DNA of 32,000 nucleotides. Source: Nitrospira sp. Lineage in GTDB: Bacteria > Nitrospirota > Nitrospiria > Nitrospirales > Nitrospiraceae. How positions within the stretch are numbered: the stretch's first letter is position 1; each line of letters opens with the position of its first letter. This document shows positions 7,330-26,013 of the stretch, piece after piece. The notes beneath the pieces were generated by a model. The model was not told the DNA's origin. It did no database searches and saw only the letters and a list, made by a program, of their open reading frames with translations. The stretch lies in the NCBI GenBank assembly GCA_029194675.1, contig JARFXP010000004.1, forward strand, positions 281,938 through 313,937, read 5' to 3'. Position numbers and translations under genes: made by a program.

Positions 7330-7406
<77 letters not shown>

Positions 7407-7771
7407 AATCTTACTCTTCTCGTCTTTCTCTTCAGCCTGATTCAATACCACTGCAACGGAACCAGCGGACTTGTCCGTTCGAAACCCATTACATAAAAAC
7501 GAAGGGGGCTGGCTCGGATCGGAAGGCTATGGGGTGCGTCCTCTCAAACGCCTCTCTAGAAGATTAGGAGCCGCGGACCGGGAGAGAGTGCCCGGCGGTC
7601 GGTCATCAGCCTAGCGGCTCCAGACGGAAACTTTACCCTGTCCATGGAGAATGAGAAAAGGGGTTGGTGTTGATATGGATACTGGGTGTCGAATGCGGAT
7701 GTTATTTGAATCCATACCCAGGTTGCGCTACTGTTTTCAATAGCTTAGTACACATATCGGAGCCTACACAC

Positions 7772-8770
7772 ATGACCACTATCAACCTGGGGCGGCTTCA
7801 AAGCGTAGACCTGCGTGAGGCTTGGACATCCGAGACCAGTGACTTCACACCGTGGTTGGCTCAAGAAGAAAATCTGAAACTACTTGGTGAAACGATCGGG
7901 ATTGAATTGGAACTGGATTCACAGGAAACCGAAGTTGGGCCGTTTCGTGCCGATATTCTGTGCAAGGATACCGCCACCGATAATTGGGTCTTGATCGAAA
8001 ACCAGCTTGAGCGCACCGATCATTCACATCTCGGACAGTTACTCACCTATGCCGCAGGGCTGAATGCCGTTACCATTGTGTGGATTTCGGAACGCTTTAC
8101 CGAGGAACACCGCGCAGCCTTAGATTGGCTGAATGAACGCACCGACGAAAAAATAAATCTCTTCGGGCTCGAAATTGAGTTGTGGCGGATCGGCACTTCT
8201 CCAATTGCTCCAAAATTTAACATTATCAGTCAGCCAAACGATTGGTCGCGCACGGTCAAACAAGCCGCCGTTGGAGGGGGCGAGGTTTCAGAGCACAAAC
8301 AGCTTCAACTTCGTTTCTGGACGGAGTTTAGGAACTACATGGAGTCTAAAAAGAGCTTCGTGCGTTGTCAGAAGCCATTGCCTCAACATTGGACCAACCA
8401 TGCGATTGGCCGATCAGGCGTACATCTCGCTTCGATTCTCTCGATTTGGAATTCTGAAACAAATGCGAAAGGGGCAGAGATTCGCGCTGAGCTGTACCTG
8501 GACGGGCCGAATGCGAAGCAGGAATTTGCGTTGCTAGCAAAGCAGAAGGATTCCATCGAAACATCGCTAGGCTTTTCGCTCACATGGTACAACCCTGAAG
8601 GCCAAGCAAGCTGCCGCTTGTACACGAGACAGAATGCCGACTTTCTGGATGAAAATTTATGGCTGCAACAGTTTGAATGGCTACGACAACGACTCGAAAT
8701 CATGCATAAGGTGTTTGCACCTCTTGTTAAGAATTTGAAACAAGAGCCGGAAGACCATAGAATGGCCTGA
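7772..8770 (+). CDS. PD-(D/E)XK nuclease-like / DUF4268-like protein
   Basis: The ORF track starts at 7664. I prefer ATG 7772 (MTTINLGRL) because GGAG lies 9 nt upstream. FRADILCKD...WVLIENQLERTDHSHLGQLLTYAAG matches the restriction-endonuclease-like N-terminal module I remember fused to DUF4268. Family assignment is from memory. Confidence 0.7.
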   Translation: MTTINLGRLQSVDLREAWTSETSDFTPWLAQEENLKLLGETIGIELELDSQETEVGPFRADILCKDTATDNWVLIENQLERTDHSHLGQLLTYAAGLNAVTIVWISERFTEEHRAALDWLNERTDEKINLFGLEIELWRIGTSPIAPKFNIISQPNDWSRTVKQAAVGGGEVSEHKQLQLRFWTEFRNYMESKKSFVRCQKPLPQHWTNHAIGRSGVHLASILSIWNSETNAKGAEIRAELYLDGPNAKQEFALLAKQKDSIETSLGFSLTWYNPEGQASCRLYTRQNADFLDENLWLQQFEWLRQRLEIMHKVFAPLVKNLKQEPEDHRMA

Positions 8771-8869
8771 GCACCGTTTATGCCTCAGATAGCTGATTGA
8801 CCGCTCGCTACCAATCCTCGTGGGGCAATTCACATCATCACAACCATGGTCACCGATGGGGGGATAATG

Positions 8870-8891
8870 CTCTTGTCTTCGACAACAAGAG
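8870..8891 (+). terminator. possible hairpin downstream of the DUF4268-like gene
   Basis: CTCTTGT-cttcgaca-ACAAGAG forms a 7-bp stem, followed by ATTGTTCC. The T-tract is weak. Confidence 0.25.
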
Positions 8892-8955
8892 ATTGTTCCT
8901 GAAATGCACTCCCCATTTCTTATCCGGCTAATTGTGCGCAATAGGAGAATCCGCG

Positions 8956-10164
8956 ATGACGAGGAAAACAGTGAAGCCCGAATCTCAGGCCGCCAGAACG
9001 CTAGTGACTGAGCCTTATGACGAAGACCTACAGTGGGATGACGAAATCCATCAGGATATTTCACCTGGCGGGGAATCTGAAGTTGTTGTTTATTCGCGCG
9101 ACTGGACCATTGCAACAATCATTCACCAGATTGAGCAGAAGAACATTGATTTAAACCCAAAATTTCAACGCCGTAACGCATGGAATGACGATAAACGAAG
9201 CATGTTAATTGAATCACTTATCGCGGGGCTTCCTGTGCCCGAAATAGTATTAGCCGAAGATCCCAATAAGCGGAAGGCATTTATTGTCATTGATGGGAAA
9301 CAGCGGCTTCTAACAATCGCAGGGTATGTGGACCCAACAGTTGAATATTGGGGAAAAGCCGAACTAAAGAAGCTACAGCTTCGCAAGGAGTTGAATACAA
9401 AGACCTACGAGCAGCTTAAATCTGAAAACGCTTTAGCGGATGAATACAGAGAATTTATGAACGCCGATGTTCGTTGCACGATCATTTCTAATTTCAAATC
9501 AGACGACACCCTCTACGACATATTCTACCGCCTAAACACCGGTTCGGTACCTCTTAGCACGCAAGAACTAAGGCAGGTCCTGCACAAAGGACCTTTCGCC
9601 GACTACCTGATTCAGATAACGAATACGACTGAACCTTTGCATCGTATCATGAGGCTGAATGGCCCTGACACCCGGTTAAGGGATGTCGAAATAGTGCTGC
9701 GCTTCATAGCAATTGTTTTGTTTGGCCCTGAATACGAAGGCAACCTAAAAAAGTTTCTTGATGAGGCGATGAAGAGAGTGACTACCGATTGGACAAGATT
9801 AGAGCCAATTGTGGCAAAAATTTACAGCGACATGAATTGCGCAATTACTAATCTCGTTAAAGTCCTTGGCGAGAAAGCTGTGGGAAGGAAGTTTGTAGAT
9901 GGTGATTGGGAAGGGCGATTCAATCGGGCTCTTTTTGAGGTAGAGGCATTCTATTTTCGGCTAATTCCTGATGCCAAGATCGCTGGTGGAAAGCGGAAGT
10001 TTGTTGCGGGTCTACAAAAGCTGTTTGATAACCCAGAGTTCAGGGCTTCAGTCGAAGCTACTACTAAAACAAAAGATCGCTACGAACTGCGTTTTCGTCG
10101 TTTCCAAGAACTTGTGAACGCATCATTTGGTACCAACATTAACGAACTCCCCATCGTAGCCTAA
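8956..10164 (+). CDS. DUF262 (ParB/Srx-like, GmrSD N-terminal type) domain protein without recognisable DUF1524/HNH domain
   Basis: The ORF track starts at 8932. ATG 8956 is preceded by AGGAGA. The motif run is DLNPKFQRRNAWNDDKRSMLIESLIAGLPVPEIVL...FIVIDGKQRLLTI, a DGQQR-type motif. The C-terminal half is helical and I could not find a His-Me finger. Confidence 0.75.
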   Translation: MTRKTVKPESQAARTLVTEPYDEDLQWDDEIHQDISPGGESEVVVYSRDWTIATIIHQIEQKNIDLNPKFQRRNAWNDDKRSMLIESLIAGLPVPEIVLAEDPNKRKAFIVIDGKQRLLTIAGYVDPTVEYWGKAELKKLQLRKELNTKTYEQLKSENALADEYREFMNADVRCTIISNFKSDDTLYDIFYRLNTGSVPLSTQELRQVLHKGPFADYLIQITNTTEPLHRIMRLNGPDTRLRDVEIVLRFIAIVLFGPEYEGNLKKFLDEAMKRVTTDWTRLEPIVAKIYSDMNCAITNLVKVLGEKAVGRKFVDGDWEGRFNRALFEVEAFYFRLIPDAKIAGGKRKFVAGLQKLFDNPEFRASVEATTKTKDRYELRFRRFQELVNASFGTNINELPIVA

Positions 10165-10187
10165 TTACTCGCTCTATCGGAGTTGCT

Positions 10188-10814
10188 ATGGTTGACGTGA
10201 ATGCGCTTCACGGGGAGCTGACGAGGTATGTTGGTGAATTAGCTGCAAAGTTTGTCAATCAGTACATACCTGCCAATCCAGAGACTTCTCCTGACACCTA
10301 TGCCCATGATGTCAAGGCGTACTGCATACTCGCGCATGCGGCGTTTGAAGACTTTATTGAAGAAGTTGCTCTGAGTCTGACAGATTACGCCGCAGAACAG
10401 TATCGTTCCCAGCGAAAAATAAGTGATGTAACCCTCGCTCTCCTTTGTCGGTATGGCGCTAAGCTGAAAATCGACGATGATGAGACTTCTATTGAGATAA
10501 AACCTTTCGATTATTTAAGGAACCTTGTCGAAGAAGCAAAGACATCCTTTTCTAAGGAAATACATAAGAATCATGGCGTATCTATCCTCTATCTTAGGAG
10601 TCTGTTAATACCGGTTGCTATTGAAATTACGCAGGACGCGAATCAACTGAACTCTCTAAGGAAGCTCTCAGAAGGACGAGGCGCGTACGCTCACAAAGCC
10701 CGAGTGAGGAGTGTCCTAGCTCCCGAAGATGCAAAGCGATATGTTGAGGATGTTCTGGCTCTTTGCGATGATGTGCGGGCAAAGGCTGTGTCAGAAATCG
10801 CACGACTTCAATAA
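10188..10814 (+). CDS. HEPN-domain protein (MAE_28990/MAE_18760-like), putative RNase partner of DUF262
   Basis: 208 aa, with GGAG upstream and 23 nt after the DUF262 stop. Near the C-terminus R164-GAYA-H169 gives an Rx4H HEPN motif. The family name is recalled, not tested. Confidence 0.6.
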   Translation: MVDVNALHGELTRYVGELAAKFVNQYIPANPETSPDTYAHDVKAYCILAHAAFEDFIEEVALSLTDYAAEQYRSQRKISDVTLALLCRYGAKLKIDDDETSIEIKPFDYLRNLVEEAKTSFSKEIHKNHGVSILYLRSLLIPVAIEITQDANQLNSLRKLSEGRGAYAHKARVRSVLAPEDAKRYVEDVLALCDDVRAKAVSEIARLQ

Positions 10815-10859
10815 ACGCTTGAGATGGGTTTACATCCATCCCGCACATCCCCGATCTAG

Positions 10860-10932
10860 CGCGGAGATTTACGCAGTCAACGCGATGGTCACCGAGGGGT
10901 TAAATCGTGACCGAATTGACCCCCAGCAACAA
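10860..10932 (+). repeat. tRNA-fMet-like degenerate repeat, copy 1
   Basis: cgcggagatttacgcagtcaacgcgatggtcaccgaggggttaaatcgtgaccgaattgacccccagcaacaa aligns by eye along its whole length with 11519-11591. Its 3' part resembles the T-arm/acceptor end of the tRNA at 7330-7406. Confidence 0.5.
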
Positions 10933-10989
10933 GGGGGATGAAGGAGGTTTCCGTACTACGAGATGCTTGATAATCTTCAGACAGTAAAT

Positions 10990-11145
10990 CTATTCGCATC
11001 GCGGGATACTGCGATCGCATTCGGGATGGCCGAAGCCGAAGGTCAGAATGTGCGTATCCACCTGGACAGTGCGACCCAACAGTGTTAGACAAAGCACCCC
11101 GATAGCCAGAGAAGACCATCCCACCATAGACCAGAAGCGTCTCAT
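10990..11145 (-). CDS. speculative small secreted peptide (51 aa)
   Basis: Below the ORF-track size cutoff. My translation is MRRFWSMVGWSSLAIGVLCLTLLGRTVQVDTHILTFGFGHPECDRSIPRCE. GGGAG lies 5 nt upstream and the N-terminus looks like a signal peptide. No homology is recognised. Confidence 0.2.
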   Translation of the reverse strand: MRRFWSMVGWSSLAIGVLCLTLLGRTVQVDTHILTFGFGHPECDRSIPRCE

Positions 11146-11518
11146 GTGTCTCCCTAAATTGTCGTGAATTAACCAGTCCTCACCATCAGTTTAGGAATTT
11201 GAATGAAGTTGTCAAGAATTCCATGGAAATGCTTCGATCTACTCTATTGCGGTGTGCGCCTCGATTGCTCTCTGCAACTCAGATATGGGTTCGTCATATT
11301 CGTGTCCCAATCGTGCGTTGAGTGGAAGAAATCTGTATGCACGGGGGCGGTCCCATGGGAAGCGAGTGGACTCCAGTGCAGAGGGAAACCGTTCGGGAAG
11401 GAAGGCCGTGGGGGGATCTCCGGGGCGGCGGATATGTTCCTGACTTAAAACGAGAGGACAATCGGTCGATCAAGAGCTTGTCTCATATCGCAAATCAAGC
11501 TACCTTCGCCACTCCTCG

Positions 11519-11591
11519 CGCGGGAATTCATGCCGTCAATGGGATCGTCAGCGAGGGGTAAAATCGTGACCGAATCGCCTCCCCGCAACCA
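11519..11591 (+). repeat. tRNA-fMet-like degenerate repeat, copy 2 (pseudo-tRNA / old att remnant)
   Basis: 73 nt: CGCGGGA...GTCAGCGAGGGGTAAAATC[gtgaccgaatcg]CCTCCCCGCAACCA. The 5' 7 nt and the 3' ~40 nt match the tRNA-fMet acceptor/T-arm, with a ~12-nt insertion. The middle is not foldable as a canonical cloverleaf. Confidence 0.5.
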
Positions 11592-11674
11592 ACTCTTTCC
11601 ACGGATTTTCCCAATCCCCCGACGCAATTGGGTTACGGCGCAGGCGCTTCAGTTCACACCAATGAGGTGTGCGC

Positions 11675-11716
11675 ACAAAAAACGGCCCGGAACCCCTTGA
11701 TTGGAGTTCCGGGCCG
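11675..11716 (-). terminator. rho-independent terminator belonging to the amoC 3' fragment
   Basis: 11-bp perfect stem CGGCCCGGAAC / GTTCCGGGCCG (11683-11693 and 11706-11716). On the minus strand it is followed by a TTTTTT run (A-run 11677-11682). Confidence 0.6.
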
Positions 11717-11750
11717 AATGCTCACCCCTCTAACAGGACCGTTTAGTACC

Positions 11751-11903
11751 TTAGTACCCGGTCTTGGCTCCCGTGCCCACCTGGCTGGGGAACGGATCCA
11801 GGATGCTCTTTGGCGCGTTGTTCCAGATCACGTCCGCCAGATTCGACATCCGGCTCACGATCTGCGCCGCCATGCCCCAGCGGCCCCGAACAACCCGCAC
11901 TAA
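11751..11903 (-). pseudogene. amoC: truncated amoC 3' end (last ~40 codons plus stop)
   Basis: The minus-strand translation ...[39 protein letters not shown] matches the C-terminus of the intact AmoC at 13292-14101 (...[39 protein letters not shown]). Nucleotide homology stops near 11903, and an indel breaks the frame at its 5' edge. Confidence 0.8.
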
Positions 11904-12088
11904 GAGACGTCGGTGCCGACACAATGCCAACAGGCTATGACACGAATGAGGATAGGTCAGGTAAGTTGCCGACGGAATTCCTAATCAGGGGGACACTGTA
12001 TTCGAAGGTATCACCCACTCACACAGGAGCTTAGAGCGAAGAGAGCAGTTGAGACGGTGATCATTGCAGCAACTCTCTGGGAGCGTTA

Positions 12089-12409
12089 TCAAGCAGTCAC
12101 GAGTGCTTCTCTCCGTTGCTCGATATGCTTCCTGACTTTCACCGACAAAGCTTGTTCGGCAAGCTGCAGCTCATAGGTCTTCTGCAGATTCATCCAGAAT
12201 TCCGCCGTGGTGTTGAAGAACGTGGCCAGACGCACTGCGGTATCTCCGGTGATGCCACGCTGCCCTTTAATAATTGCCGTAATTCGATTCGCCGGCACGT
12301 CGAGGGCCTTGGCTAGTGTGTTGGCATTAATCGGCGGATCTGATGGCTTCATGAACTCTTCCAGCAACATTTCACCTGGATGAATTGGTCGCATGCCGTT
12401 TTTTGTCAT
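12089..12409 (-). CDS. higA: HigA-family antitoxin (XRE HTH)
   Basis: The ORF track starts at 12493. The in-frame ATG at 12409 gives MTKNGMRPIHPGEMLLEEFMKP...LAKALDVPANRITAIIKGQRGITGDTAVRLATFF, a typical HigA. It begins 13 nt after the higB stop. Confidence 0.85.
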   Translation of the reverse strand: MTKNGMRPIHPGEMLLEEFMKPSDPPINANTLAKALDVPANRITAIIKGQRGITGDTAVRLATFFNTTAEFWMNLQKTYELQLAEQALSVKVRKHIEQRREALVTA

Positions 12410-12422
12410 GATGTGCTCTCCC

Positions 12423-12701
12423 TCAGTGGTAGTCGGTGATCTCCACGTCGTGGGGACCATCAGCCATCCACACAAAACAAATCCTCCACTCATCGTTAAT
12501 TCGAATACTGTGTTGTCCGATCCGATCCCCTTTTAATTTTTCAAGTCGATTTCCTGCCGGTGAGAGGAGATCTTTCAGATCAGCCGCGTTGTCGAGCATC
12601 GTGAGTTTCCTCTCGGCCACCTTTCTAAAACTGGAAAACTCCTTCACAGTCTTTCCGGCGAAGAACTGTTCCGTCGTCTTGTCGCGAAAACCACGAATCA
12701 C
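12423..12701 (-). CDS. higB: HigB-like toxin (RelE/ParE superfamily, plasmid maintenance system killer)
   Basis: 92 aa: MIRGFRDKTTEQFFAGK...LKGDRIGQHSIRINDEWRICFVW. The toxin-first order is typical of higBA. Confidence 0.85.
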   Translation of the reverse strand: MIRGFRDKTTEQFFAGKTVKEFSSFRKVAERKLTMLDNAADLKDLLSPAGNRLEKLKGDRIGQHSIRINDEWRICFVWMADGPHDVEITDYH

Positions 12702-12890
12702 CAGACCCAGCCTATCATACTTTTATGCTTTACGTACAGCGTATGCGCTCAAATCGCGCCAAAGAGCGTCGCAAAGGATAGAATTCATAGAAGTCATTGC
12801 ACCAGATAGAAAGCTGCACGGTCATCGATTAACTTGTAAAAACGAACACCCGGACGAAAGATCAGGTATTCAGAAACTTTTTCTGACAGT

Positions 12891-12940
12891 CTCATAACCC
12901 AACGGTCAGAGGTCCAAATCCTCTCCCCGCGACCAAATCT
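12891..12940 (+). repeat. direct repeat of the 3' 50 nt of tRNA-fMet (att-type remnant)
   Basis: ctcataacccaaCggtcagaggtCcaaatcctctccccgcGaccaaatct compared with tRNA positions 7362-7411 shows three mismatches by eye. Confidence 0.85.
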
Positions 12941-12965
12941 CATCTTCTTACCTCTTCTCGACCAC

Positions 12966-13136
12966 CAGTAGTGTCCCAACGTTTGTATCATCAATGGACG
13001 AAACATGTTAATTGGCTTGATGTTCACAGATTCACAACCTGTTGCCGACTTCAATCGAGCGCCGAAATGCGTACCTAGCCGAATCAATCACTTGCGATAT
13101 GCAAATTGGCATTTTTTTAACATTGGGACACTACTG
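12966..13136. mobile_element. 171-bp MITE-like element with 18-bp terminal inverted repeats and 9-bp target site duplication
   Basis: The left TIR is CAGTAGTGTCCCAACGTT (12966-12983). The right TIR (13119-13136), reverse-complemented, is CAGTAGTGTCCCAATGTT, a 17/18 match. Identical CTCGACCAC flanks it at 12957-12965 and 13137-13145. The element is absent from the paralogous flank at 7431-7450. Confidence 0.75.
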
Positions 13137-13206
13137 CTCGACCACTTCAATTAAACATCAACCCCTGCAAGTGAACCAACGGACTCGTCCATTCGAAACC
13201 CATTAC

Positions 13207-13252
13207 ATCAAAAAAGTAGAGGGCTGGCTCGGATATCCGAACCAGCCCTCTA
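13207..13252 (-). terminator. rho-independent terminator of intact amoC
   Basis: Long hairpin TAGAGGGCTGG-c-TCGGA-ta-TCCGA-a-CCAGCCCTCTA (13217-13252). On the minus strand it is followed by CTTTTTTGA. Confidence 0.8.
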
Positions 13253-13291
13253 ACTGCGTCCCCTGGGAGAGGGCTACAGATTTATGGTCTT

Positions 13292-14101
13292 TTAGTACCC
13301 TGCCTTGGCGTTGGGGTTCACCTGGCTGGGGAACGGATCCAGGATGCTCTTCGGCGCGTTGTTCCAGATCACGTCCGCCAGATTCGACATCCGGCTCACG
13401 ATCTGCGCCGCCACGCCCCCGGCCGCCCCGAACAAGCCGCACCAGCCCAACGTCACGAAGCCCCAGTGTAACGGCGCCGAGAACAGCTCATCCACGAACC
13501 AGAACGCATGGCCCCACTCATTGAGTCCCACGTTCGGCAGAATGAACATCGGCCCCACCACCGCCGCCACCAGCGCAAAGGAGGTCGCCTGGTTATAGAG
13601 CGGCAGCCGCGTCTGCGCATACAGATAACTGGATACGCCGCACGTGATGTACAACGGGAACGTCCCGTAGAACGCCACAATGTGGCTCGCCGTGAAGCTC
13701 GTGTCCCGGATGATCACTTGGTGCCACGCCGCATCCTGCTCCAACGTGTAGCTGCCTGCGTAGTACACGCCCCAGATGTAACAGGCCAGCCAGCCCATCC
13801 AATAGAAATACCGCTTCAACTCCAGTTTGGGGTCGAGATTGGCCAGGTTGCGGTCTCGGGTGGTCCAGATCCACCCCACCGACACCGCAAAGAACAGGGC
13901 GTTCGCCACAATGTTAAATCGCCACAGCCCCATCCACACGGAATCGAATTCCGGCGTCATCGAATCCAACCCGTGCGAGTACCCAAACGCCCGTTGATAC
14001 AGAACCCAAAAGATGCCCATCATCAACATCGCCGCCCACCCGATCTTCCACGGCTTCGAATCGTACCACTGCGAAATGTCATACCCTTTATCGCTTGCCA
14101 T
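13292..14101 (-). CDS. amoC: ammonia monooxygenase subunit C (intact copy)
   Basis: 269 aa and polytopic. Strong resemblance to AmoC/PmoC as I remember them ([54 protein letters not shown]). AAGGGAGG lies 7 nt upstream. Confidence 0.92.
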
Positions 14102-16843: not shown

Positions 16844-17695
16844 TCATGCTTTCCCCCCGATTTTTGCCTTATCGCCGTGAGCCAACGTGGTGTATGCAAA
16901 TACGTCGTACACCTTCGTGGTCCGCTGTCTGTCATCCGTGAGGTAGAAGTACGAGGTACAGAAGAACTTCCCGAACTGCCACCAGAGAATGTACATCAAC
17001 GACGAGGCGAACGCGGCGAAGAAGGAGGAGATCATCGTGCTGTGCCCGCCGAAGGTCCGCAGCGAGCCCACCTCGATCATCCGAATATACTCCGGCGTCC
17101 CGGTCCGGACATACGCGAAGCCCATGTAGTCCGCCCAGGAGAGCAAGGTGCCATCGACGACGAGCGGCGTATGGCTATAGGCAAAGATGGCCCAGTTGGT
17201 CGGATAGAACAATGCCGCAAACATCCAGGCCCCGATCACCGCCGTCAATGTCCAGTTTCTGGTCAACAACAGCACGATGTCCAGGACGATGGCACTCGGC
17301 AGCAGCGTGGACGGCATGACGAAGTTGTAGGGGTAGTTCGACCACCACCACCAGGCAGCCACGATGGTGACCCACTTCCCCGCGAGCAACGCCAGGATGG
17401 TGATCGTGGCCCCAAACGGCTGGCGGTAGTTCACCCAATTGTAGTACTGCAGGGCGGCGCAAAAGGTAATGGCCGTGATCGGCGTCACGATCGGCCACCA
17501 CTGCCGATCCTTCCAGTCCAACCAGAAGTCCCAGTCGCCCGCCAGCAGGTCGAAGTGCATGTGGAACGTGCCCACGATGGTGACGAACAAGATCGGAATG
17601 AAATAAATGTAGTCGATGTGCCGGGACATCGCGACGCCTTCCGGCGGCAACTTCGAGGCCTTAATAATCTCGTCGGTTCTAAACATAAGTGACAT
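16844..17695 (-). CDS. amoA: ammonia monooxygenase subunit A
   Basis: 283 aa, collinear with Nitrosomonas AmoA as I recall it. Matching stretches include [53 protein letters not shown] and [29 protein letters not shown] lies upstream, so the start may be ATG 17695 or 17686. Confidence 0.93.
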
Positions 17696-24342: not shown

Positions 24343-24699
24343 CGTTTCGTGACGTTTAAGGATCAAGCTGTGCACAGCTCAGAAACGATCGGCCCATTTT
24401 GTAAGCTCCCCAGTCAAGGAGACAGTTTCAAAGGAGAATTTCTGGTCTCTTGACGTTAGTCCACACGATGAGACACTTGTCCGGCTCAGCCTCGGAGCCG
24501 ACACTGCACACACCACCTCGCTAACTGCATGACAGGGGAAACGATGCCTGTTGCCTCTCAATCAGAGCCTTCGAGATGGGTGTATGTTTTCTCCCTAATA
24601 CTCTATGCGGCGTGGTTAAAGAAAACGCGACACGACCTAAGCGGAGCAGCACAACGCTCTTGGACCTCCACAGCACGGTCCCGCTTAAAACTCTACTGC

Positions 24700-26013
24700 C
24701 TACTCTTGCTTTTTTCCTGACACAATACCAGATGCTTCTACTTCAACCTCAGGAATCCTATACTTTAACCAGCAGCGGTTAGCCGTTGAGGAAAAGCTAA
24801 AGGCCTTACAATTTTTATCAAGCGCACATTCGTTAAGGCATACATCTTCACTTCCTTGGCCTTTAACTGGAAAGTCTCTGTAGTCATCACCATATAAGTC
24901 CCATCCGCTTTTGGGCTCCTCCATCTTGCCAGGTTCGGAAAAAGGCAAATAATAGACAGTGTTTAAGGTATGATAAAGTGCTATATTATTTGGTGCCTCA
25001 ATAATGCATCTGCTACCGTCCTCTCTGATTCCCGCAAAAGCTTTCGTGTGGTAAGGACACTTGCCATTCTCCTTGCTATAAAACAATTGCCCTTCCGTAC
25101 GATGGAACTTCGGAGGCCGGGTTGAGGGATCAATATCCATAACTTCACATTCCTCCATTTTGTGTTCCCTCATTTTGTGCGTGCCCCCAAATGGGCAGGG
25201 CTCCTTACCTGTAAATTCTACAAACTTTTTGGCTGGTGTTGGCTTTGTCCTAATAGTTCCCGGAGTGTAATGAGCAAAGTAGTAACCTAGTATCGCAACA
25301 GATAAAATGAGAATTACCAACGCTATTTGTGTTATTTGGAATTTAAGGTTCTTTGGTCTCTTACTGTTGCCAGCTTTTTCAAGCTCAGTTAGAGCAGTAC
25401 CTTTAAGAAATGGTATCCATACATTTTGAACATGAAGGCTATAAAAGTAGTCGGAGTGCTTAAACCCATCGCGGTGGATGTCTGCTACGATTCCATCAAC
25501 CTTGTCACTGAAGCCCTCTACTCCGGAGGGTCCAGCATCTTTCACAATCCAGGCCACCAACTTAACCCAAACATCTTTTGACCCGGATTCATTAAGGACT
25601 CCACGCACCTGACCACGTTCGACTATTTTCGCCCAAGGATAATTCTTTTCCAGAATTGATCCACATAGTATGAGCCTGTCCAGCTTCAATTCCTCATATT
25701 TGAGAAGAGCCTTTGCGACTATATATGTTCCAAAGCTGTGTGCGATGACAGAAGGTGGTTGATGCTCAGTACTAATATAGTTGGTCACCCAATCTCTAAA
25801 CTTGTCGATTTCTCTATCCCGCCTCCTAGGGTTAAGGAACATTGCTAGTTTAAGGTAACCATAATCAAAAGGACTGTGCAGTAGATGATGTTCTTCTAAC
25901 GTATCATTCAGCTCTTTCTGCCAGGCCCCAGTTGTACGAATACCGTGAAGACTAATAACGCGACGAGCGAAAGTCGATGTTTGAGATGCTGTCGTGAAAC
26001 TTAGTTCACCCAT
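24700..26013 (-). CDS. membrane protein: N-terminal alpha/beta-hydrolase (AHSFG nucleophile elbow), one TM helix, Cys-rich region and C-terminal PAN/Apple-like domain
   Basis: 437 aa. It has ISLHGIRTTGAWQ and VIAHSFGTYIV (GxSxG-like). The TM helix is ITQIALVILILSVAILGYYFA. The C-terminal CLNECALDKNCKAFSFSSTANRCWLKY fits the PAN/Apple cysteine pattern. GGGGAAGAG lies upstream, and the sequence is AT-rich. Confidence 0.7.
   Translation of the reverse strand: MGELSFTTASQTSTFARRVISLHGIRTTGAWQKELNDTLEEHHLLHSPFDYGYLKLAMFLNPRRRDREIDKFRDWVTNYISTEHQPPSVIAHSFGTYIVAKALLKYEELKLDRLILCGSILEKNYPWAKIVERGQVRGVLNESGSKDVWVKLVAWIVKDAGPSGVEGFSDKVDGIVADIHRDGFKHSDYFYSLHVQNVWIPFLKGTALTELEKAGNSKRPKNLKFQITQIALVILILSVAILGYYFAHYTPGTIRTKPTPAKKFVEFTGKEPCPFGGTHKMREHKMEECEVMDIDPSTRPPKFHRTEGQLFYSKENGKCPYHTKAFAGIREDGSRCIIEAPNNIALYHTLNTVYYLPFSEPGKMEEPKSGWDLYGDDYRDFPVKGQGSEDVCLNECALDKNCKAFSFSSTANRCWLKYRIPEVEVEASGIVSGKKQE

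Follow-up and report, generated by a model that had tools for sequence, protein, structure and literature searches.

A DUF262–HEPN gene pair in a tRNA-linked island of Nitrospira is a probable distant relative of the PD-T4-2 phage-defence system

Results

A DUF262–HEPN gene pair beside a tRNA-Met gene

We examined a 32,000-nt stretch of a Nitrospira sp. contig (JARFXP010000004.1, positions 281,938 to 313,937; hereafter the window), in which a gene for a DUF262 protein (gene A) is followed by a gene for a HEPN protein (gene B). This two-gene cassette stands downstream of a DUF4268 gene, in an island at a tRNA-Met gene (Table 1). A reading of the letters alone, here called the original prediction, had recognised a DUF4268 gene, a DUF262 protein without the DUF1524 nuclease half and a HEPN gene, and searches with hidden Markov models (HMMs) agreed: DUF4268, DUF262 and HEPN were all matched in Pfam (PF14088, PF03235 and PF18735) and DUF1524 was unmatched. 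It had also described an Rx4H motif at R164-H169, a 23-nt distance between the paired genes and a tRNA-linked island that includes a HigBA pair, all of which are present in the sequence.

Table 1. Features in and around the island (positions are those of the window).
Feature	Position	Strand	Remarks
tRNA-Met (CAT)	7330-7406	+	ARAGORN; Rfam tRNA, 64 bits
DUF4268 gene	7772-8770	+	332 aa; ATG start, GGAG 7 nt upstream
DUF4268-gene A spacer	8771-8955	+	185 nt; hairpin at 8860-8900, AGGAGA ribosome-binding site of gene A
Gene A (DUF262)	8956-10164	+	402 aa; likely ATG at 8956 behind AGGAGA
A-B intergenic spacer	10165-10187	+	exactly 23 nt; GGAG 5 nt before the HEPN ATG
Gene B (HEPN)	10188-10814	+	208 aa; ATG start
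HigBA pair	12089-12701	-	HigB (PF05015) and helix-turn-helix antitoxin
Partial copy of the tRNA-Met 3' half	12891-12940	+	94% identity to the 3' 50 nt of the tRNA
amoC	13292-14101	-	PF04896, 2e-105
amoA	16844-17695	-	PF02461, 3e-99

The reading frame of gene A is open from a TTG at 8932, upstream of its likely start. The short spacer between genes A and B, with a GGAG of its own, implies that the two would be co-transcribed. Both were expected to be AT-richer than their surroundings and are so (GC content of 0.451 for gene A and 0.461 for gene B, where the fmt/rsmB flank has 0.565 and the window 0.541), with the DUF4268 gene at 0.493. A hairpin between the DUF4268 gene and gene A, originally placed at 8870-8891 with a 7-bp stem, does exist but is larger than first described: it spans 8860-8900 (+) with a 16-bp stem (dG of -17.9 kcal/mol; z = -4.76; 0/200 shuffles fold as well) and has no U-tract. 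Terminator-like sites around the cassette were no more frequent than in shuffled sequence. A promoter-like site (TTGAAA-17-TAGAAT, 10/12 positions) lies at 8735-8763, inside the 3' end of the DUF4268 gene; promoter-like sites in the region were not enriched over shuffles, and this one is statistically not distinctive. Separate transcription of the DUF4268 gene and the cassette is plausible from this layout. The non-coding regions at the 5' hairpin, after the HEPN gene and close to the tRNA showed no similarity in ~130 related loci.

Gene A is predicted to encode a DUF262 protein with an intact nucleotide pocket

The gene A protein matched PF03235 GmrSD_N (DUF262) at E = 3.7e-25, above the gathering score, and as this was its sole Pfam match at E <= 1 we consider it to be without DUF1524. 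That domain had no Pfam match in the gene B protein at E <= 1 either, and Pfam found no His-Me, PD-(D/E)XK or other DNase domain in either of the two proteins. Gene A carries the motifs QRRNAW (residues 71-76), DGKQR (113-117) and FYRLN (190-194), all of which were invariant in 24 homologues; together, QRxxxW, DGxQR and FxxxN define the nucleotide pocket of DUF262 proteins (PMC12065111).

Among PADLOC profiles, the best match of gene A was NsnA (E = 6.9e-69; residues 25-390 against profile positions 28-381 of 385), and PD-T4-2_A (PDLC04027) was matched at E = 2.6e-40 (136.6 bits; residues 41-278 against profile positions 28-262 of 363). The coverage of the NsnA profile indicates that the C-terminal half of gene A is probably an NsnA-type helical domain, which Li et al. 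(2025) named ParBDB and predicted to be DNA-binding (PMC12065111). In an AlphaFold2 (AF2) model (predicted local distance difference test score, pLDDT, of 79.5) the N-terminal 41 residues are disordered, and the best structural matches of the model are BrxU, CTP- or CDP-bound ParB, and SspE. By analogy with such proteins, we propose that gene A encodes a sensor or nucleoside triphosphatase (NTPase) subunit. The suggestion that the pair is a split GmrSD, or one with a substituted effector, survives as an analogy only, as full-length gene A fits NsnA better than any GmrSD or SspE model.

Gene B is predicted to encode a HEPN RNase

The gene B protein matched PF18735 HEPN_RiboL-PSP (E = 5.7e-15; 56.2 bits against a cutoff of 28.4). 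The original prediction had called it MAE_28990-like; that family (PF18737) gave no match to gene B in Pfam at E <= 1, and since PF18735 was the only Pfam family matched at this threshold, membership of MAE_28990 was rejected. The HEPN motif reads RGAYAH, from R164 to H169. In 26 HEPN homologues R164, G165, A168, H169, E54, E58, N128, G130 and S132 were invariant, and in 56 diverse representatives, down to ~25% identity, R164, E54 and G130 remained so and H169 was at least 90% conserved. HEPN domains with Rx4-6H motifs are metal-independent RNases that act as dimers (Anantharaman et al., 2013, PMC3710099), and by analogy we propose that gene B encodes an RNase effector.

An AF2 model of gene B is all-alpha (pLDDT of 88.5), and the protein has no sequence relative in the PDB. 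Its closest named relative is from Nitrospira. A profile search of 1.84 billion representative proteins returned 1199 HEPN clusters at E <= 1e-3 (139 at E <= 1e-30); among the 150 matches listed, nearly all were stand-alone proteins of 200-250 aa.

The two genes form a conserved and mobile unit

A word-indexed protein search found 62 relatives of gene B, and a PF03235 gene stood directly upstream of the HEPN gene in all lineages that were looked up (5/5), in neighbourhoods that were otherwise unrelated. We surveyed the pairing from both sides. From the HEPN side, with one genome per GTDB species, 28 loci were obtained, of which 27 had upstream sequence and were testable; by tblastn, a gene A homologue lay directly upstream in every one of them (27/27). 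The gene A homologues in these loci have 45-75% identity and the HEPN homologues 29-67%, and the loci span Myxococcota, Acidobacteriota, Verrucomicrobiota, Poribacteria, Alpha-, Beta- and Gammaproteobacteria, Desulfobacterota and Bacteroidota; the pair also occurs in Parageobacillus (Bacillota). From the DUF262 side, gene A homologues of 47-79% identity were collected on 80 metagenomic and 2 viral contigs, and HEPN open reading frames (ORFs) were scored with an HMM from an alignment of the window HEPN lineage (A1). A HEPN ORF followed directly downstream in 68 of the 69 contigs that had at least 650 nt of downstream sequence, with the gap between the two genes mostly -4 to +35 nt. The conserved two-gene cassette that had been anticipated is thus borne out by co-occurrence, and the DUF262–HEPN pair is close to an obligate unit.

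No other neighbouring gene was conserved beside the pair in the related loci. Homologues were found beside integrases and tRNAs and, at one locus, next to a CI-like repressor; a P2-like prophage of Klebsiella has the pair between tail genes, and the two IMG/VR viral contigs with the cassette carry tail genes nearby. The cassette is self-contained and horizontally mobile, carried on islands and prophages. Both IMG/VR contigs also have a DNA methyltransferase gene shortly upstream of the DUF262 gene (L044 2815-4125; L045 1852-2643); no methylase was conserved in the bacterial loci of the pair.

The cassette resembles PD-T4-2 in families and gene order

The original prediction held that the association of DUF262 with HEPN had been noted computationally and never characterised experimentally. 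The former is correct, as Anantharaman et al. (2013, PMC3710099) recorded a 'Ribo L-PSP-HEPN ... operon with ParB', and the latter holds for the mechanism only, given PD-T4-2, a system of E. coli ECOR65 that is annotated 'DUF262, HEPN' and has an ORF span of 1540 bp (Vassallo et al., 2022, PMC9519451). It lies at QOYX01000002:338334-339873, where the first protein is RCO39066.1 and the second ORF is unannotated. By HHpred, its gene A was assigned to PF03235 at 99.7%, and its gene B to PF18735 as the top family at 97.8%, with MAE_28990 second at 96.9% (PMC9519451). PD-T4-2 was protective against T4 from a plasmid, and its deletion from native ECOR65 greatly raised T4 plaquing (PMC9519451). Reviews list it among the DUF262 systems without DUF1524, with its mechanism uncharacterised (PMC10952713, PMC12065111).

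The window pair shares both Pfam families with PD-T4-2, and in the same order. We assign it to the PD-T4-2 class and judge it to be a defence cassette of this class with a probability of roughly 70%. Both are two-gene operons with a PF03235 protein first and a small PF18735 HEPN protein second, without DUF1524, ATPase or methylase, and carried on mobile DNA, and the PD-T4-2_A profile finds gene A. They differ in size (402 and 208 aa in the window against profile lengths of 363 and 168), in that the PD-T4-2_A match is confined to the N-terminal two thirds of gene A, in that the PD-T4-2_B model is blind to the window HEPN, and in that the window host is nitrifier-type, not an enterobacterium; the defence phenotype is that of the ECOR65 member only. 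The window cassette thus appears to be a distant relative of PD-T4-2, with an architecture that was already known.

Three other enterobacterial pairs, obtained from DNA and tblastn searches, were compared with the window: one on an IncX plasmid (L012), one in a lambdoid prophage (L013) and one in a P2-like phage (L127). Their DUF262 proteins scored 118-142 bits on PD-T4-2_A, about as distant as gene A, and E. coli DUF262 proteins from such pairs also score best on the NsnA model. Gene A aligned with the L013 protein at 31% identity over 287 residues (E = 5e-33). The partner proteins of L012 and L013 are PF18735 members, an Rx4H motif was seen in that of L127, and the E. coli prophage HEPN partner was weakly matched by PD-T4-2_B (2e-4). 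Partners on Rhodococcus and Rhizobium plasmids are intermediate, with an Rx4H motif and an E of ~1e-19 on a second HMM of the window HEPN lineage (A4); tblastn of gene B against plasmids gave no match.

Several results weigh against placing the window pair in this class. PADLOC, which the original prediction had suggested running on the locus, matched gene A with PD-T4-2_A and left gene B unmatched by PD-T4-2_B (PDLC04028) even at E <= 10, so that a strict PADLOC call as a complete system would fail; two gene B homologues (P0019 and P0058) were likewise unmatched at E <= 10. Gene B had no BLASTP similarity to the HEPN partners of the three enterobacterial pairs and, with profiles of 26 and 56 sequences, no hhalign similarity to two of them, and HMMs A1 and A4 found nothing significant against enterobacterial HEPN partners; joint membership of PF18735 appears to be the sole link between the window HEPN and those of E. 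coli. A Foldseek search of the PDB with the gene B model gave no match at E <= 0.001, so the assignment to the HEPN fold rests on the Pfam profile and the motif. Gene A, for its part, scores higher on Menshen NsnA than on PD-T4-2_A. The comparison is made through profiles, not through the ECOR65 sequences themselves, and the defence role of the window lineage would be an extrapolation from one distant member, PD-T4-2. Finally, a tight two-gene operon and strict pairing are also shown by toxin–antitoxin modules.

On these comparisons, the class appears to be a broad family that evolves fast, with quicker divergence in its HEPN half than in its DUF262 half. The window cassette appears to be part of a large environmental lineage, which would not be called complete by current PADLOC models.

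Some further observations concern the enterobacterial and plasmid relatives. On IncX plasmids of Salmonella Typhi the pair stands immediately after the replication initiator gene (L012 2107-3747), and copies of this pair with at least 95% identity occur on 12 complete E. coli plasmids. The lambdoid-prophage pair (L013), which is different from the IncX pair, was found in ~31 E. coli chromosomes. For the Rhodococcus and Rhizobium plasmids the PLSDB tables give no gene after the DUF262 gene, yet HEPN ORFs are present there (L010 5174-5860; L011 5089-5841); the Rhizobium plasmid HEPN copy is apparently disrupted at its 3' end by an IS4 element.

The DUF4268 gene appears to be independent of the pair

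The DUF4268 protein matched PF14088 (E = 2e-25; residues 178-317) and the PADLOC model PDC-S11 (PDLC04911; 4.5e-122; residues 1-321 against profile positions 1-314 of 318), and its family is large, with >8000 homologues, many of them ~80% identical across phyla. It had been considered a possible member of the system, an idea that its distribution speaks against. The protein had no tblastn match in 41 related loci and the gene no DNA match in any related locus examined, and it was a companion of the pair in none of ~110; elsewhere, its homologues stand by themselves among housekeeping genes, or in type I restriction-modification operons with hsdS on one side and hsdR on the other. With the gene absent from all DUF262–HEPN loci examined and found in independent contexts elsewhere, a role as third subunit was rejected, and we read it as an independent defence-type gene that shares the island and forms a separate single-gene candidate. 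In two loci, ~80% identical homologues lie between hsdS and hsdR in an 'embedded defence gene' pattern (L129 5001-5987; L130 5001-5987), and in L130 a Mrr-type gene adjoins the homologue.

The N-terminal half of the protein had been labelled PD-(D/E)XK, a label that its residues 1-178 do not sustain, with no Pfam match even at E <= 10 and no PDB sequence match. A D61...E76-N-Q78 pattern is visible in this half, at a position equivalent to MdgA E77. DUF4268 has been associated with GmrSD-type proteins (Machnicka et al., 2015). MdgA and MdgB, single-gene nucleases with DUF4268 domains reported from functional metagenomics in 2025, restrict T4 and not T4-GT7, and MdgA E77A is inactive (PMC12366544). 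The window protein may be an MdgA-like modification-dependent nuclease. Like PDC-S11 and MdgA/MdgB, it is a single-gene protein of ~330 aa with a C-terminal DUF4268 domain, its E76 is one position from the catalytic E77 of MdgA, and its relatives are embedded in type I restriction-modification operons. However, PDC-S11 is itself a candidate system, the homology to MdgA is a lead, and profile searches detected no nuclease domain in the N-terminal half of the window protein.

The island and its surroundings

The tRNA-Met gene appears to be the integration site that anchors the island, and the partial copy of its 3' half the distal, att-like boundary of an island of ~5.5 kb. Besides its place in the tRNA at 7392, the 16-nt 3' core (CTCTCCCCGCAACCAA) was found at 11577 with two mismatches and at 12921 with one, where 0.37 matches would be expected by chance, and a degenerate copy lies near 10917, within a 75-nt repeat (10856-10930 = 11515-11589). 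Sequence from just downstream of the tRNA (7447-7519) recurs at 13161-13234, and 11751-11900 holds a second copy of the amoC 3' end (13292-13442). The segment from 7407 to ~10930 carries the DUF4268 gene and the cassette, and the last segment of the island carries HigBA; no integrase gene is left in the island, and no ORF of at least 120 aa was found between 10815 and 12088. This arrangement of 7330-13442 fits several elements that would have been added one behind another at the tRNA-Met site.

The stretch 7553-7621 (-), which follows closely on the tRNA, gave a sub-threshold match to the Rfam int-alpA RNA (E = 0.046; 25.5 bits, with the gathering score at 35.8). This RNA motif normally lies near the integrase and alpA genes of integrated elements, and the match may be a remnant of an integration module. 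A strong terminator-like hairpin at 11683-11716 (-), with a 14-bp stem of which 11 pairs are G-C, is followed by TTTTTTGT and stands just downstream of the duplicated amoC fragment.

The defence island is inserted directly beside amoC, whose 3' end is duplicated. Between amoC and amoA, which are both ammonia monooxygenase genes, lie an unknown ORF and ftsH. These genes, and the Nitrospira origin of the closest named relative of gene B, point to a host that is probably a nitrifier. A second AT-rich patch lies at 24500-26000 (GC of ~0.44) and contains a 437-aa ORF (24700-26013, -) with a C-terminal PAN domain, which may be another horizontally acquired gene.

Discussion

The pair at tRNA-Met is probably a PD-T4-2-class defence cassette, and two of the alternatives to this assignment begin from features that it shares with other DUF262 systems. 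Gene A has the ParB-DUF262 domain and helical ParBDB-type C-terminal domain of Menshen NsnA (Millman, 2022; Li et al., 2025, PMC12065111), contains QRxxxW, DGxQR and FxxxN, and matches the NsnA profile over its full length, as it would if the locus were a reduced or degenerate Menshen (NsnABC) in which the NsnB ATPase and the NsnC effector had been lost or replaced. Yet the island holds no ABC-ATPase, DUF3696 or inPIN effector gene, and the window has a HEPN partner in place of the NsnB ABC ATPase and NsnC inPIN-nuclease effector; in roughly 100 related loci it was again HEPN that lay downstream (27/27 and 68/69) and never an ATPase. E. coli DUF262–HEPN proteins likewise score best on NsnA, so the NsnA model is simply broad, and a survey treats PD-T4-2 as a separate DUF262-centred system (PMC12065111). 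Without an NsnB or NsnC gene, membership of Menshen was rejected, and we regard a Menshen remnant as highly improbable. A two-piece modification-dependent type IV restriction system, in which the DUF262 protein reads modified DNA and the downstream protein is a DNA-cleaving substitute for DUF1524, would account for the intact DGxQR pocket, for the presence of BrxU and SspE among the best structural matches, for the adjoining DUF4268 gene and for the selection of PD-T4-2 on T4, a phage with glucosyl-hydroxymethylcytosine DNA. GmrSD, BrxU and SspE share with gene A the ParB-like DUF262 NTPase domain, whereas they are single polypeptides with a C-terminal DUF1524 His-Me DNase, and the window has a separate, RNase-type HEPN protein downstream; with no DUF1524 in gene A or gene B, membership of GmrSD was rejected. 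The Rx4H motif is an RNase and not a DNase signature (Anantharaman et al., 2013, PMC3710099), Pfam found no DNase domain in the two proteins, in its C-terminal half gene A aligns with NsnA and not with the GmrSD linker and DUF1524, and DUF4268 was never beside the pair in the other loci examined. We find a DNA-cleaving system of this kind quite unlikely.

The pair could also be a type II-like toxin–antitoxin or addiction module, in which a HEPN toxin is restrained by the DUF262 protein and whose main effect is to stabilise its carrier, be it island, prophage or plasmid. Pairs of a HEPN toxin and an antitoxin are established (e.g. HEPN-MNT), the pair follows directly after the replication initiator gene on an E. 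coli/Salmonella IncX plasmid, and the window island holds a HigBA pair as well as the cassette. However, a neutralising antitoxin needs far less than the upstream partner offers, a 400-aa NTPase that has a DNA-binding-type domain and invariant pocket motifs, and the tested relative, PD-T4-2, protects against T4, with its native deletion sensitising ECOR65. The two roles are not mutually exclusive, as many toxin–antitoxin modules act as abortive-infection systems; as the main function of the pair, addiction seems to us unlikely.

For a PD-T4-2-class cassette, the following chain of events can be proposed. The A protein would bind nucleotide through its QRxxxW, DGKQR and FxxxN pocket and survey DNA, and would change state on invading, possibly modified, phage DNA. 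This change would release or activate the HEPN partner, and the HEPN dimer would then cleave RNA with R164 and H169, so that translation and phage growth would stop, perhaps at the expense of the infected cell. In GmrSD, BrxU and SspE, DUF262 domains are NTPases, and it is their nucleotide cycle that links the recognition of modified DNA to effector activation (PMC10952713); by analogy with these, with Menshen and with other HEPN systems we infer the sensing step, the A-B complex, the RNA target and whether the action would be abortive or direct. We hold this specific chain from sensing to RNase tentatively, at somewhat less than even odds. As a HEPN partner stands where Menshen has NsnB and NsnC, any signal would pass from the DUF262 protein to the effector directly, without an ATPase transducer. 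That this widespread lineage of about 1200 representative HEPN clusters consists of two-component systems, with a ParB-like NTPase clamp that reads a feature of invader DNA and directly switches on an RNase, is possible, though we think it doubtful. It is speculative that the pair also cooperates with its MdgA-like DUF4268 neighbour against phages whose DNA is modified.

If the proposed chain were true, sensing of DNA in the style of type IV restriction would be coupled to an RNA-targeting, possibly abortive, output. Such coupling of DNA sensing to an RNase would be biochemically new for PD-T4-2 and for DUF262 systems in general. The window locus adds breadth, not a new principle; it gives no special experimental handle on how a ParB-like NTPase would control a HEPN RNase, and its host is not genetically tractable. 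The locus also exposes a gap in detection: PADLOC profiles miss this lineage because its HEPN half has diverged beyond PD-T4-2_B, and HMMs from the HEPN alignments would raise the counted prevalence of the class. The PD-T4-2 architecture is no E. coli curiosity; it belongs to a broad and strictly paired family that occurs in many phyla and in prophages, nitrifier-type genomes included.

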